Shown here one piece after another: positions 30,096 to 38,348 of a stretch of 64,000 nt of DNA. The position numbers and the translations under genes were made by a program. Origin of the DNA: Patescibacteria group bacterium. GTDB taxonomy: Bacteria; Patescibacteriota; Minisyncoccia; Phycocordibacterales; PALSA-1337. Where the stretch lies: assembly GCA_024654575.1 (NCBI GenBank), contig JANLHG010000014.1, positions 88,745-152,744 of the forward strand, read 5' to 3'. Position 1 is the first letter of the stretch. Every line of letters starts with the position of its first letter. The notes below the pieces were generated by a model. The model searched no databases. It was not told where the DNA came from and was given only the letters and a program-made list of their open reading frames with translations.

Positions 30096-32009
30096 ATGTA
30101 CTTGAAAAGTTTAGAAATATCTGGATTTAAATCTTTTGCCAAGAAATCAATACTTGAATTTAAAGCACCTATTACAGCTATCGTTGGGCCAAATGGTTCT
30201 GGTAAATCAAATGTTGCCGAAGCATTTCGTTTTGTGTTAGGTGAACAGTCTATAAAATCTCTCAGAGGGAAACGAGGAGAAGACCTTATCTTTAATGGAG
30301 GTAATACTGAGGGTAGAAATCTTAATCGTGCGGGTGTTAAAGTTATTTTTGATAATAAAAAAAGGTCTTTTAATATTGATTTTGATGAGATTTCAGTGGA
30401 AAGAATAGTTAATAGAGATTCTTCTAACGAATATATAATTAATGGGAGTCAGATTAGATTAAAAGATGTCTTAGAACTTTTAGCTGGAGCACATATAGGT
30501 TCATCCGGGCATCATATTATTTCTCAAGGTGAAGCAGATAGAATTTTAAATGCTACTATTAAAGAACGTAGGGAGATGATAGAAGATGCCCTTGGTTTGA
30601 AATTGTATCAATATAAAAAACTAGAAAGTATTAAAAAACTTGATAAGACTCAAGAAAATATTAAAGATGTGGAATCATTAAAACGTGAGATTGCTCCACA
30701 TTTGAAATTTTTAAAAAAACAAGTTGAAAAAATTGACAAGGTTTTAGAAATGAAAAAGTCTCTTGTTGATTTTTATAAAGAATATTTTAAGCGAGAAGAA
30801 ATATATCTACAATCAAAAAGAAAAAAAATTGAAGATGGTATGCGTGAGCCAAAACAAAAGCTTATTGAGCTTGATAATGAACTTGTAAAAGTAAAAGAAA
30901 AACTTGTAGAAACAGAAAATATTGAGCACCCTACCGAAGTAGATAAAATCGTCCATTTCAAAGATACTGAATCACTTTTAAAACATATTGATATCTTGGC
31001 GGAAGAGGGAGAAAAAAGTGAAAATGTGACGGATGTAAAAAATATTTTGAAAAAAATTAGGTCTTTCGCTAAAGAGTTTTCTATTATTGTTGATAAAGAA
31101 TCTGAAATTGAAAAATTGAAAGCCGAAAAAGATGTTTTCAGAATTATTGCTATTCAAAATGAACTTAAAGGGGTACTTAATTCTTTAGAAACTCAAGAAA
31201 AAACACTTGTTTTTGAAGAAGAATCTTTTAAAAGAACTCTTTCTGAAGCGTATGTATTGGCTGGTAGAGAAGCTGTAGACTTTCAAAAACTTTCTTTTGA
31301 AATTGAAGAAGATAGATCATCACAGGAAGAAAGAAGAAAAAATATTGAAAAAATAAAAATAAGAATTGAAGATTCTGGTGCTGGTAATAGTGCTGATGTA
31401 GTCAAAGAATATAAAGAAGTGGAAGACAGAGATGTTTTCCTTTCTAAAGAACTTGAAGATTTGCGTAAATCAGCAGAAACGCTTGAAGGACTTATAAAAG
31501 AGCTAGATGTTCGATTAGATACTGAATTTAAAAACGGTATTATCAAAATAAACATTCAATTTAATCATTTCTTTTCACTTATGTTTGATGGAGGAAATGC
31601 TTCATTAGAGATTGTTAAAGAAAAGAAAAAGAGCGATGAGACAGAAGAGATCGAAAATGGAGTGGAGATTAATGTTAATTTACCACGCAAGAAAATTAAA
31701 GGCCTTGAAATGTTGTCTGGTGGGGAACGGGCTCTTACTTCAATTGCTTTACTTTTTGCTATATCTCAAGTTAATCCTCCTCCCTTTATTATTCTTGATG
31801 AAACTGATGCTGCACTTGACGAAGCTAATTCACGAAAGTATGCCGATATGATTGAAAATCTTTCACATTATTCTCAACTTATTTTAATTACTCATAATCG
31901 CGAAACGATGTCTCGTGCTGGGGTTTTGTATGGTGTTACAATGAGCTCTGATGGTGCATCTAAGTTACTTTCTATCCAATTTGAAGAAGCCGTCAAAGTG
32001 GCGAAATAA
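30096..32009 (+). CDS. smc: SMC-family ATPase with an abbreviated coiled coil (637 aa)
   Basis: Walker A GPNGSGKSN; coiled-coil middle; signature LSGGERALTSIALLFAI; Walker B FIILDETDAALD. Confidence 0.6.
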   Translation: MYLKSLEISGFKSFAKKSILEFKAPITAIVGPNGSGKSNVAEAFRFVLGEQSIKSLRGKRGEDLIFNGGNTEGRNLNRAGVKVIFDNKKRSFNIDFDEISVERIVNRDSSNEYIINGSQIRLKDVLELLAGAHIGSSGHHIISQGEADRILNATIKERREMIEDALGLKLYQYKKLESIKKLDKTQENIKDVESLKREIAPHLKFLKKQVEKIDKVLEMKKSLVDFYKEYFKREEIYLQSKRKKIEDGMREPKQKLIELDNELVKVKEKLVETENIEHPTEVDKIVHFKDTESLLKHIDILAEEGEKSENVTDVKNILKKIRSFAKEFSIIVDKESEIEKLKAEKDVFRIIAIQNELKGVLNSLETQEKTLVFEEESFKRTLSEAYVLAGREAVDFQKLSFEIEEDRSSQEERRKNIEKIKIRIEDSGAGNSADVVKEYKEVEDRDVFLSKELEDLRKSAETLEGLIKELDVRLDTEFKNGIIKINIQFNHFFSLMFDGGNASLEIVKEKKKSDETEEIENGVEINVNLPRKKIKGLEMLSGGERALTSIALLFAISQVNPPPFIILDETDAALDEANSRKYADMIENLSHYSQLILITHNRETMSRAGVLYGVTMSSDGASKLLSIQFEEAVKVAK

Positions 32010-35692: not shown

Positions 35693-36292
35693 ATGCTTAA
35701 TTATCTATCAAATTTACCTCAAATAGATTATCAAAAAATTTTTTCAAGTACTTATGATTTTTTCTATAATTTAAGTTATTTAGAATGGTTAAAAAACTTC
35801 TTTTCTTTTCTGAATTATTATCAGGCTATTTCAACATTGGTAACCCTTATTTTATCTATCGGTATTTTTTATTCAATATTGCGTATTATCCAAATAAGAC
35901 AAAAAGAGGCGATGATTTATTATCCTAATATTTCTGAAATTGAAAACATGGAAATATCTAAAGAGGGAATGAAAACTATTAAAAAATGGGATAAAATATT
36001 AAACCATTTGGAATCAGAAAATATTAATGATTGGAAAGTCGCTATTATTGAAACTGATATTCTTTTAGGAGAAATGCTTGATAAAGTGGGTTATCAAGGT
36101 GATAGTATAGGTGAAAAACTAAAAAGAGTTGAAAAGGGTGATTTGATTACTTTAGATAAAGCATGGGAAGCCCATAAAGTTAGAAATGAAATCGCACATC
36201 AAGGTTCAGAATTCGCTATTAATCAAAGGGAAGCAAGGCGTGTTGTGGCTATGTATAAAGAGGTTATAAATGAGCTTGAGAGAAGGAATTAG
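35693..36292 (+). CDS. Hypothetical membrane protein
   Basis: One TM helix; no family recognised. Confidence 0.45.
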   Translation: MLNYLSNLPQIDYQKIFSSTYDFFYNLSYLEWLKNFFSFLNYYQAISTLVTLILSIGIFYSILRIIQIRQKEAMIYYPNISEIENMEISKEGMKTIKKWDKILNHLESENINDWKVAIIETDILLGEMLDKVGYQGDSIGEKLKRVEKGDLITLDKAWEAHKVRNEIAHQGSEFAINQREARRVVAMYKEVINELERRN

Positions 36293-36962
36293 ACTTTAGT
36301 TGACTAATGCTTCCTAGAATACGTCGTCGTAGATTTGTACCACGTCTTATTTTTATTCTTAATGTACCGTAATAATTGTCGTGATTTAAGTATCTTTTTT
36401 TAGAAATTGTTTTTATTAAACTAGTTTTTGTAAATTGTGAAGTAGGAACGTTTGTAATGCTTGACCAATAATTAATGATTTTTTGTATTCTATTTGAGTG
36501 TACATTGTTAATACTTATTCTTAATATAAAATTCTCTAATTTTATTTGATATATTTTTTCAAACCATTTTATCATTATTTTTATAATTTCTGGATCACTA
36601 TTAGTAAATCCAACTTCCTCATTTCCTTTCTTATATCCTTCTGCCCAGTAAAGAGCAAGTCCTGTTATGTACAAATCTCTTCTACTTAAATCTTTTACAT
36701 CTTTTTTGCCAATATCTGTATAGTATATAGTTTGAATAATTCTTTCTTTTTTGTGTTGTTCGTAATATTTTAGTAGTGCTTTAGAACTTTCACTTTTTTG
36801 TTTTTCTTGTAGTTTTTTTACTTGCGTATCATTAAGTAAAATATTTCTACACCATACACTGGTTGTACTTTTACTGATTTGTAATGTATTTGCGATGTCA
36901 TTAATACTCATTCCTTGTTTACGAAGTATGTGAGCTTTTTCTTTTTTTAGTATGTATGCCAT
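36264..36962 (-). CDS. HTH-domain protein with a LAGLIDADG-like motif (GLALYWAEGYKK); putative homing-endonuclease-like protein, paralog A
   Basis: N-terminal HTH (GMSINDIANTLQISKSTTSVW); central L-x-G-x-A-L-Y-W-A-E-G motif followed by a basic beta-rich region as in single-motif LAGLIDADG enzymes. It is a paralog of 37554..38246. Confidence 0.45.
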   Translation of the reverse strand: MAYILKKEKAHILRKQGMSINDIANTLQISKSTTSVWCRNILLNDTQVKKLQEKQKSESSKALLKYYEQHKKERIIQTIYYTDIGKKDVKDLSRRDLYITGLALYWAEGYKKGNEEVGFTNSDPEIIKIMIKWFEKIYQIKLENFILRISINNVHSNRIQKIINYWSSITNVPTSQFTKTSLIKTISKKRYLNHDNYYGTLRIKIRRGTNLRRRILGSISQLKSNSFSQAHL

Positions 36963-37053
36963 AATTATGTACTAACTATACTAGGTTAGTATACCATGTA
37001 TTGCTATTGATTTAAATTTATAATTACGATAGTATATTAAAAGTAGGTTAAAT

Positions 37054-37353
37054 AGCGGGATAGAGTAACAGTAATTCGCAAGGCTCAATTTGGGCTCATT
37101 TCTTAGTAATAAGATATTGATATTTCGTCAAAGTCGGTGAAACCTATTTTTAAAATGATTGGTAATACCGAGCCAAGTTCTAATTTTTATTAGAAAAGGT
37201 GTAGAGACTAGACGGCGAACATCCTGAGTAGTAATTACGAAGGATGAAGGTATAGTCCAGACCACAAATTTGTTATTATGTAGCAAAGCGATGCAAATCG
37301 TAGCGGTAAGCATAACCTTGAGATCTGGGTGCGACTCCCGGTCCCGCAACCAC
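37054..37353 (+). ncRNA. Structured RNA with a tRNA-like 3' domain (T-arm, acceptor, ACCA); candidate tmRNA (ssrA)
   Basis: The 3' end CTGGG-TGCGACT-CCCGG (T-arm) then TCCCGCA-A-CCA. A complementary 5' AGCGGGA lies at 37054-37060, followed by AATTCGCAAGG resembling the tmRNA GAUUCGACGGG element. CAAGG/CCTTG pairing brackets the body as a P2 helix would. The downstream hairpin with T-runs on both strands marks the transcript end. The ORFs called here in the six-frame track are rejected. Confidence 0.35.
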
Positions 37354-37362
37354 GTAAAAAGA

Positions 37363-37390
37363 AAAACTCCACACTGTGTGGAGTTTTTCT
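37363..37390. terminator. Bidirectional rho-independent terminator (CTCCACACTGTGTGGAG flanked by A-run/T-run)
   Basis: Perfect hairpin between the convergent candidate ncRNA (+) and tRNA-Asp (-), with T-runs on both strands. Confidence 0.6.
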
Positions 37391-37391
37391 T

Positions 37392-37468
37392 TGGCGCGGT
37401 CGACCGGGCTTGAACCGGCAACCTCTCACGTGACAGGCGAGTGCTCTAACCAGTTGAGCTACGACCGC
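37392..37468 (-). tRNA. tRNA-Asp (GTC), CCA encoded
   Basis: Cloverleaf folded by hand: acceptor GCGGTCG/CGACCGC, anticodon loop CTGTCAC, T-loop TTCAAGC, GCCA 3' end. Confidence 0.9.
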
Positions 37469-37553
37469 ATCTCCTAAAATGTATCAGATTTAGCGATTCA
37501 AATCAATCTTGTGGATAAAGTCGTACTATCAATATGGTATTATATATTACACT

Positions 37554-38246
37554 ATGGCTAAGTTTGATTTACGCTTAAAAGCTTTAAAACGAAGGAGAAT
37601 AGGTGAAAGTATAGGACATATTGCAAAGGAATTGAATGTTTCAAAAGGTACGGTAAGTTTATGGTGTTCAGATATAGAATTAACCGAAAAACAAAAAGAA
37701 ATTTTAGCTAAAAAATCTAATCTCGCAAGTCTTGATGGAAGAATGCGAGGAGTTGAAACAAATAGAAAAAAAAGACTTGATACAATCTCACGATATGAAA
37801 AGGATGGAAAAGAATTTACTGGATGTTTATCCAGTCGAGATAAAATGCTTATTGGGGTAGCATTATATTGGGCAGAGGGGAGTAAAAAGAAAGGTGTTTT
37901 TAGTTTTGTTAACTCTGATGCAGTAATAGTTAAATGTGTATCTAGATGGTTAAATGATGTTATGGGAGTTTCTAAAGAAGATTTTATTCCTAGGGTTGCA
38001 ATCAATGAAATGCATAGAAAGCGTATTGAAAAAGTTTTGAATTTTTGGTCAAATCTGTTAGAATTGCCGCGTAGTCAATTTAGGAATACTTTTTTTATTA
38101 AAACTGTTCAAAAGAAAGTATATGAGAACTATGACACTTATTATGGTACTCTTGTACTTAGAGTTAGAAATAGTACTCATTTAAAGTATAGGATATTAGG
38201 TTTAATTGAGGGATTAAAGAACGGTATTTATAATTTGCTGGGGTAG
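37554..38246 (+). CDS. HTH-domain protein with a LAGLIDADG-like motif (GVALYWAEGSKK); paralog B
   Basis: HTH (IGHIAKELNVSKGTVSLW) plus the same central motif and C-terminal pattern (NYWS/NFWS...TNVP/LELP...SQF...YDTYYGTL) as paralog A. Its stop overlaps the first bases of tRNA-Met. Confidence 0.45.
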   Translation: MAKFDLRLKALKRRRIGESIGHIAKELNVSKGTVSLWCSDIELTEKQKEILAKKSNLASLDGRMRGVETNRKKRLDTISRYEKDGKEFTGCLSSRDKMLIGVALYWAEGSKKKGVFSFVNSDAVIVKCVSRWLNDVMGVSKEDFIPRVAINEMHRKRIEKVLNFWSNLLELPRSQFRNTFFIKTVQKKVYENYDTYYGTLVLRVRNSTHLKYRILGLIEGLKNGIYNLLG

Positions 38247-38310
38247 CTCAGGTAGTTAGAGCATCTCACTCATAAAGAGAAGGTCACAGGTGCAAGTCCT
38301 GTCTCCAGCA
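38237..38310 (+). tRNA. tRNA-Met/Ile2-type (anticodon CAT), elongator-like, 3' CAA (CCA not encoded)
   Basis: Cloverleaf: GCTGGGG/CTCCAGC with one G-U pair, D-arm GCTC...GAGC, anticodon loop CTCATAA, T-loop TGCAAGT. There is an A31-A39 mismatch. Confidence 0.75.
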
Positions 38311-38348
38311 CAAATTTGATCAAAATGAATAACTATTATAAATAAATT

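Follow-up and report, generated by a model that had tools for sequence, protein, structure and literature searches.

A compact group I intron splits the anticodon loop of an initiator-type tRNA(CAU) gene in a Patescibacteria genome

Group I introns of bacterial tRNA genes are known from four classical settings, Leu.3Ug, Arg.5Ug, fMet.2Ug and Ile2.5Ug, all of the IC3 subgroup (Williams 2020). The tRNA-fMet intron of Synechocystis is 655 nucleotides (nt) long and encodes the PD-(D/E)XK homing endonuclease I-Ssp6803I (PMC1995217). Metagenomic assemblies of unnamed phyla, at 0.49 interrupted tRNA genes for each genome, rank directly behind cyanobacteria in frequency (Williams 2020), and group I introns hamper the detection of some tRNAs in circularised metagenome genomes, including those of the Candidate Phyla Radiation (CPR) (Lui et al. 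2021). Here we describe a locus of this kind in a 64,000-nt stretch of a Patescibacteria contig (JANLHG010000014.1, positions 88,745 to 152,744), referred to below as the window. Positions 37054-37352 (plus strand) of the window almost certainly hold an initiator-type tRNA(CAU) gene that is split in its anticodon loop by a 225-nt IC3 group I intron without an open reading frame (ORF).

The window intron follows the second anticodon-loop nucleotide (U33) of an initiator-type tRNA, with U at position -1 and an omega-G as its last base, which is the fMet.2Ug setting. In pairwise comparisons with the seeds of Williams 2020 it was 60% identical to Tpc1.fMet.2Ug, 64% to Sba135.Met.2Ug and 52% to the Azoarcus tRNA-Ile intron, with the same helices. 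Its core is nearly the same as that of the Azoarcus intron and those of the cyanobacterial and CPR seeds. Judged by its sequence and predicted fold, it is a member of fMet.2Ug, the classical IC3 class described from cyanobacteria; this class is already well known, and the window locus is one further, diverged copy. With the tRNA-fMet introns of Synechocystis PCC 6803 and other cyanobacteria it shares the host gene, the U33/C34 site, U-1 and omega-G and the IC3 core, and the Tpc1.fMet.2Ug seed has the same P9/P9a/P9b layout. Unlike the much longer, endonuclease-encoding Synechocystis intron, the window copy has a 3-nt P1 loop and is ORF-less, and it differs from the cyanobacterial fMet introns in its patescibacterial host and in the exon variants A1xA72, A29-U41 and G55. 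The Azoarcus tRNA-Ile(CAU) intron (Ile2.5Ug), the model IC3 ribozyme, is likewise compact, ORF-less and located in a CAU anticodon loop. Both introns have GNRA tetraloops on P2 and P9 and share identical core stretches, namely GUCAAA-UCGG-GAAACCU, CCGAGCCAAG, AAGGUGUAGAGACUAGACGGC (a 21-nt block of the P7-P8 region) and UGAAGG-AUAGUCCAG. The Azoarcus intron, however, is inserted after U36 (5' exon ...CAU) of a different tRNA, and its P9 region differs from that of the window copy, which has P9a and P9b. The cyanobacterial and plastid tRNA-Leu(UAA) intron (Leu.3Ug) is a self-splicing anticodon-loop intron of the same IC3 family, but it lies in another tRNA between U34 and A35. It is regarded as an ancient intron passed on vertically, whereas the window class is sporadic among identical exons.

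The identification rests on a match to an intron model, exact intron boundaries, a cloverleaf, covariation in the intron helices and a presence/absence polymorphism, all of which were directly observed. Model positions 1-253 of the Rfam group I intron family RF00028 (gathering score 50 bits) aligned to 37076-37275 of the plus strand, scoring 67.4 bits with E = 6e-15 for the full window. The Rfam alignment placed P1 at GGCUCAA/UUGGGCUC, immediately after CAAGG, which pointed to an intron in the anticodon loop of a tRNA gene. In default mode ARAGORN called five tRNAs in the window and none at 37054-37352, and an ordinary uninterrupted tRNA at this position was rejected on this basis. With introns allowed, the program reported tRNA-Met(cat) i(33,225) at 37054-37352, and removal of 37086-37310 in silico left a clean 74-nt tRNA-Met(CAU) cloverleaf (Table 1).

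Table 1. Predicted features of the interrupted tRNA gene and its surroundings (positions in the window; percentages refer to the intron alignment described in the text).
Feature	Position	Strand	Description
Promoter-like TTTAAA-16 nt-TATATT	37011-37038	+	9/12 consensus matches; ends 16 nt upstream of tRNA position 1; weak candidate
Exon 1	37054-37085	+	Acceptor 5' strand, D arm, anticodon-stem 5' strand CAAGG, C32, U33; ARAGORN intron mode and collinear allele L132
Group I (IC3) intron	37086-37310	+	225 nt, ORF-less; 5' splice site after U37085, omega-G = G37310; RF00028, covariation
P1	37082-37096	+	Exon GGCU and intron CA with UGGGCU; 93% canonical, U-G wobble in 45/45 homologues
P2 hairpin, GUAA (GNRA) tetraloop	37098-37117	+	89% paired, 39 pair types; loop G and AA conserved
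P3	37124-37129 / 37214-37219	+	100% canonical, compensatory changes; encloses P4, P5, P6, P6a
P4	37134-37138 / 37167-37171	+	100% canonical
P5	37142-37144 / 37161-37163	+	95% canonical
P6	37172-37174 / 37198-37200	+	98% canonical
P6a	37178-37184 / 37189-37195	+	87% canonical, compensatory changes
P7 pseudoknot, guanosine-binding, bulged A	G-A-GACUA 37204-37210 / UAGUCC 37253-37258	+	100% paired
P8 (inside P7)	37221-37225 / 37241-37245	+	90% paired, compensatory changes
P9	37261-37263 / 37305-37307	+	93% paired; encloses P9a, P9b
P9a	37269-37275 / 37281-37287	+	84% paired
P9b, GCAA tetraloop	37288-37292 / 37297-37301	+	97% paired
Exon 2	37311-37352	+	CAU, A37, A38, CCTTG, 4-nt variable loop, T arm (loop UGCGACU), acceptor 3' strand, A73, encoded CCA; cloverleaf and collinear uninterrupted alleles
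Palindromic hairpin, G+C-rich core CUCCACA/UGUGGAG	37358-37392	both	Perfect 16 bp; U-run after core on either strand
tRNA-Asp(GUC), convergent	37392-37468	-	ARAGORN; Rfam tRNA 66 bits

The initial annotation had taken the locus for a candidate transfer-messenger RNA (tmRNA, ssrA) or another structured RNA with a tRNA-like end. The elements on which it drew were present: AGCGGGA as a 5' strand (37054-37060), CAAGG (37079-37083) and CCTTG (37316-37320), the T-arm-like hairpin CTGGG-TGCGACT-CCCGG (37326-37342) and the acceptor-like TCCCGCA-A-CCA (37343-37352). Taken together they lie far beyond chance, as the cloverleaf formed after intron removal and the RF00028 match indicate. Their interpretation changed. 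CAAGG/CCTTG, proposed as a P2-like helix, is the 5-bp anticodon stem of the tRNA, and contrary to the statement that no canonical anticodon arm fits, this stem closes the canonical loop CUCAUAA once the intron is left out. That AATTCGCAAGG resembles the tmRNA element GAUUCGACGGG is a coincidence; the stretch runs from the D-stem 3' strand through position 26 to the 5' half of the anticodon stem.

A tmRNA would form a tRNA-like domain from both ends around a tag-peptide frame and pseudoknots. The locus resembles tmRNA (RF00023) in the acceptor-like pairing of its distant ends, its T arm and its CCA end, and some tmRNAs host group I introns, though in the T loop (Williams 2020). But tmRNA has no anticodon arm, a reduced D arm, a tag ORF and pseudoknots, whereas the spliced product of the window locus has a complete D arm and a CAU anticodon stem-loop, the body is a full group I core and the uninterrupted relatives are ordinary 72-74-nt tRNAs. 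ARAGORN found no tmRNA in the 64-kb window and reported no tag peptide; the initial annotation had found no tag frame with confidence either. A permissive Rfam scan of 36950-37500 gave no tmRNA family at E <= 1; apart from the intron it returned tRNA-Asp and sub-threshold noise (three microRNA rows, one small RNA and one plastid element of the 5' untranslated region). The tmRNA reading is refuted by these results, and its residual probability is negligible. The broader fallback of a structured RNA with a tRNA-like end holds loosely, in that tRNA ends flank a structured catalytic RNA. The checks proposed along with it, ARAGORN, a general Rfam search and conservation of the 5'/3' pairing, were well chosen and settled the identity.

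The intron sits between U33 and C34 of the anticodon loop (CU/c...g/CAUAA). U37085 pairs as a U-G wobble with G37093 in P1, as the 5' splice-site rule of group I introns demands, and the last intron base, G37310, directly precedes CATAACC, as is required of an omega-G. Alternative splice sites were rejected: U37085 is the only U in a P1 wobble, and G37310 is the only nearby G that gives a 7-nt loop. The earlier 3' end suggested by the Rfam match, 37275, with CCACAAA/UUUGUUA as the last hairpin, was set aside as well, because the Williams seeds and covariation extend P9/P9a/P9b to 37310.

Related alleles were sought in metagenomes. An exact scan with 38 nt of the 3' exon gave no match, and a relaxed 3'-exon pattern recovered 120 related alleles, of which 103 were continuous, 15 interrupted and two truncated by contig ends. 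One continuous allele, L132, shares 96% identity with the tRNA predicted after splicing and reads across the junction as ...CAAGGCT-CATAACCTTG... Some identical tRNAs differ in whether an intron is present (L162 against L149, with a 205-nt intron; L219 against L217, with a 234-nt intron). All 15 interrupted alleles have U33, after which the intron starts with CAA... following GGCU. These alleles also end in G, but this was demanded by the boundary classifier and gives no independent test of the omega-G; in the homologues from species-representative genomes it was fixed by the search pattern. Independent support for the predicted 3' boundary comes from the junction in the uninterrupted alleles. 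For some homologues ARAGORN called tRNA-Leu(CAA); these are miscalls, as the intron starts with CAA, and they were dismissed by reference to the uninterrupted alleles.

Position 33 varied among the uninterrupted related initiator alleles: 27 of the 103 have C instead of U (...GAGGCC/CATAACC...; loci in L121-L240, e.g. L128, L130, L144 and L146). The difference from the interrupted alleles, 15/15 with U33, has a Fisher p of 0.02, with kinship ignored. C33 alleles may be refractory to functional insertion of the intron, because C33 would abolish the U-G wobble needed at the 5' splice site.

The search pattern for species-representative genomes consisted of the IC3 core joined to G/CATAACC. It matched at least 120 loci, many of them in Patescibacteria. 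Exons could be defined for 97 loci among the matches listed, and their ligated product is a tRNA(CAU), mostly of the initiator type. An explicit IC3 scheme was drawn on the window copy, and pairs were counted in an alignment of 46 non-redundant compact introns (<= 300 nt), which are 49-72% identical to the window intron (the best 25, 60-72%). The twelve helices P1-P9b were canonically paired in 84-100% across the 46 homologues, against mostly 5-60% in controls with slid partners, a few of which reached 0.66-0.80 (P9 0.80, P3 0.76). Double compensatory changes were numerous in P2, P3, P6a, P8, P9a and P9b. Positions in P3 vary between UA, CG and GC, those in P2 take up to six pair types, and the one P7 pair left free by the search pattern varies between AU, UA, GC and CG. 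RNAalifold, run on the same alignment, independently recovered P2, P3, P4, P5, P6, P6a, P8, P9a and P9b. Conservation among the other 45 sequences reaches 90% or more at 91 columns (65 of these columns are free of the pattern), and the window intron has the consensus base at 90 of the 91. The conserved columns kept include J3/4 (AAA), the P4/P6 junction, J6/7, J8/7, the bulged A of P7 and the GNRA loops of P2 and P9b. All helices of the window intron are intact except for one U-U mismatch in P2. When this intron was folded by itself, the same peripheral hairpins appeared, at a minimum free energy of -53.8 kcal/mol (z = -2.8). Its 225 nt contain no sense-strand ORF of 30 or more amino acids. 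A 52-amino-acid antisense ORF within the intron was disregarded as noise, and the antisense ORFs 37128-37421 and 37235-37429, which run through the candidate terminator and tRNA-Asp, were considered spurious.

The spliced tRNA has the anticodon CAU in the loop CUCAUAA, as in initiators. Its 1x72 position is unpaired (A1xA72; C1xA72 in E. coli), its D stem GAGU/AUUC gives A11-U24 where elongators have Y11-R24, and G2-C71/C3-G70/G4-C69 and A73 are further initiator traits. The role of the tRNA was assigned from these sequence features, which point to an initiator-type molecule. The A1xA72 variant also occurs in 10 of the 97 genome-set tRNAs (among the loci listed) and in most of the related metagenomic alleles, and both A1 and A29-U41 are common to many related CPR alleles. 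Because many such alleles share them, A1xA72, A29-U41, the short GG-less D loop and the T loop UGCGACU are best read as lineage traits rather than decay.

The two loops showed a pattern of their own. The T loop (37330-37336) has G in place of the near-universal U at position 55, and the D loop (37067-37073, AACAGUA) lacks the usual GG. Among the distinct interrupted CAU tRNAs from genomes (loci listed), a UGC T loop went with a GG-less D loop in 5/5 and a UUC T loop with GG in 77/77; in the metagenome set, which was chosen for GUGCRA, GG was absent in 71 of the 73 distinct tRNAs (variant loci L039, L096, L100, L113 and L121-L240). The pattern suggests that the 18:55 tertiary pair has covaried, from G18-Psi55 to A18-G55, in a Patescibacteria clade. 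A second tRNA(CAU) in the window (38237-38311, plus strand) is elongator-type with a paired G1-C72; its T loop, UGCAAGU, also has G55, and it retains the D-loop GG, so that a simple 18:55 covariation fails there.

Several points weigh against reading the locus as a working initiator tRNA gene with a self-splicing intron. Guanosine-dependent self-splicing of the window intron is an activity that we infer from the conservation of its core. The search pattern fixed five of the six P7 pairs, two P3 nucleotides and the omega-G, so that invariance there is not independent evidence, and the MAFFT alignment of the peripheral hairpins is imperfect. Promoter-like sites occur at chance frequency, with two in the region against 2.6 expected in shuffled sequences. 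Within the tRNA, position 1 is A and not C, the T loop has G and not U at position 55, and the anticodon stem (A29-U41, G30-C40, G31-C39) contains two G-C pairs instead of three. We speak of an initiator-type tRNA rather than a canonical initiator because of this missing third pair; natural exceptions to the three-G-C rule of initiator tRNAs exist. Finally, the tRNA survey covered the 64-kb window, which bears on whether this is the sole initiator gene.

The deviations in the stem and at position 1 would also suit an elongator tRNA-Met or a tRNA-Ile2 (lysidine). Williams 2020 describes Met.2Ug and Ile2.2Ug classes at the same site, and about 14 of the 97 loci (among those listed) are of the GGGCC... 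elongator/Ile2 type. Against such an assignment, the 1x72 mismatch, G2-C71/C3-G70/G4-C69, A11-U24 and the ...CCCGCAACCA 3' end fit initiators and are unlike the interrupted tRNAs of the GGGCC/GGGAC type, and the neighbouring tRNA(CAU) at 38237 already shows the elongator-type 1-72 pairing. We consider it improbable that the interrupted gene encodes an elongator or Ile2 tRNA. Still less probable is that it is a decaying pseudogene whose intron no longer self-splices, in a cell that relies on another initiator tRNA gene. The absence of a homing endonuclease ORF, the modest identity of the intron to its nearest relatives and the restriction of the tRNA survey to the window would be compatible with decay. 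The near-invariant positions are, however, kept, including the joining segments, the P7 bulge and both GNRA loops; the helices are intact save for the P2 mismatch; and the exons give a flawless cloverleaf with encoded CCA, followed by a strong putative terminator hairpin. Moreover, CPR genomes are small and usually have a single initiator tRNA gene.

For the interrupted initiator-type gene we propose the following course of expression. A precursor of about 299 nt would be transcribed, and the intron would fold into P1-P9. P1 would arise when the end of exon 1, GGCU, pairs with the internal guide of the intron, and its U37085-G37093 wobble would mark the 5' splice site. Attack on this site would come from an exogenous guanosine in the P7 pocket; the omega-G, G37310, would then occupy the same P7 pocket, and the freed 3'-OH of U33 would attack the 3' splice site. 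Ligation of the exons would yield the 74-nt tRNA with the loop CUCAUAA and release the intron. RNase P and 3' trimming would complete the tRNA, the CCA being already encoded.

The fMet.2Ug lineage spreads by homing through the intron-encoded PD-(D/E)XK endonuclease I-Ssp6803I, and the window copy is without such an ORF. Among the matches listed in the genome set are 34 introns of at least 500 nt; those in initiator-type tRNAs mostly carry a sense ORF of about 140-185 amino acids that starts 2-45 nt into the intron. In Patescibacteria, copies of about 650 nt that occupy the U33/C34 site contain the gene for an I-Ssp6803I homologue. The ORF of one such locus (L015) matches PDB 2OST with E = 1e-51, and its exon stem is also CAAGG/CCTTG. 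Because same-site copies in Patescibacteria encode this homologue, the window copy is, as far as sequence comparison can tell, an ORF-less version of a homing intron in circulation within its own phylum.

Introns of about 606-622 nt were also seen at the same U33/C34 site in elongator/Ile2-type tRNA(CAU) genes (GGGCC.../GGGAC...; L003, L019, L027, L050, L057, L067, L093 and L109). These carry an ORF of about 95-160 amino acids on the antisense strand, which in L019 is Cys-rich with HNH-like motifs (...CSNCHAELH...). The predicted endonuclease family of these introns differs from the I-Ssp6803I type of the initiator introns.

The palindromic hairpin at 37358-37392 lies between the CCA ends of the two tRNA genes, 5 nt past that of tRNA-fMet and directly next to that of tRNA-Asp. 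The initial annotation had described it as perfect, which it is over 16 bp, with a dG of -21 kcal/mol (z = -5.86) that was equalled by none of 200 shuffles. It is plausible that it acts as a bidirectional intrinsic terminator, and it would probably end the transcripts of both convergent tRNA genes. A simple terminator scan did not list this hairpin because the T-run lies within the extended stem.

The window is a segment of a bacterial chromosome with about 33% G+C, and its genes include those for EF-G, GroEL, RNase J, MetRS, RF2, GatA, RNase R and FtsEX. The nearest named relatives of its EF-G are from Candidatus Taylorbacteria (93%), followed by Paceibacterota/Parcubacteria (about 85%). An SMC homologue at 30096-32009 (plus strand) has 637 amino acids compared with about 1180 positions in the NCBIfam SMC model; the N- and C-terminal head regions match, and the coiled coil appears strongly shortened.

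Two ORFs of about 230 amino acids, 36264-36962 (minus strand) and 37554-38246 (plus strand), bracket the tRNA-fMet/tRNA-Asp pair. The second overlaps the 5' end of the elongator-type tRNA(CAU) at 38237-38311 by 10 nt with its stop. The two products are paralogues (40% identity, E = 1e-54) with an N-terminal helix-turn-helix (HTH), a long helix and an unannotated C-terminal domain containing an invariant ...ALYWAEG... motif; the source annotation lists the family as hypothetical or HTH proteins. A profile of 45 family members matched the LAGLIDADG endonuclease I-DmoI among PDB sequences with E = 3e-4, and the invariant E108 aligned with I-DmoI residue 117, which we take to be the acidic residue that closes its second LAGLIDADG motif. 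The AlphaFold model has a mean predicted confidence (pLDDT) of 94.9; Foldseek searches with it returned many I-DmoI chains at a probability of 0.90-0.96, beside unrelated alpha/beta folds and with weak E-values. Of the 240 loci fetched, 20 had a homologue, whose distance from the initiator tRNA gene was 66-813 nt in 19 cases and 2.6 kb in the remaining one. Such homologues occurred at interrupted and continuous alleles in many Patescibacteria, and no enrichment at interrupted alleles was found (2/10 against 5/48, p = 0.59). From profile and model comparisons, these ORFs probably form a free-standing, single-motif LAGLIDADG-like family tied to tRNA loci, and any part in intron mobility is speculative. 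Collaborative homing has been described for a cyanophage psbA intron. We regard it as unlikely that the flanking ORFs are active homing endonucleases aimed at the tRNA-fMet region, which would either mobilise themselves into tRNA clusters or move the intron in trans by collaborative homing; if this were true, it would constitute a two-part mobile system in the CPR initiator tRNA locus.

The gene is invisible to default tRNA finders such as ARAGORN in its default mode, and the genome would seem to be without an initiator tRNA; on a naive reading the locus could pass for a tmRNA or for some novel structured RNA. The locus illustrates a polymorphism for presence or absence of the intron among near-identical CPR initiator tRNA genes. 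If it is the sole initiator gene, translation initiation in this reduced-genome host would hang on a ribozyme, a consequence already implied by Williams 2020.

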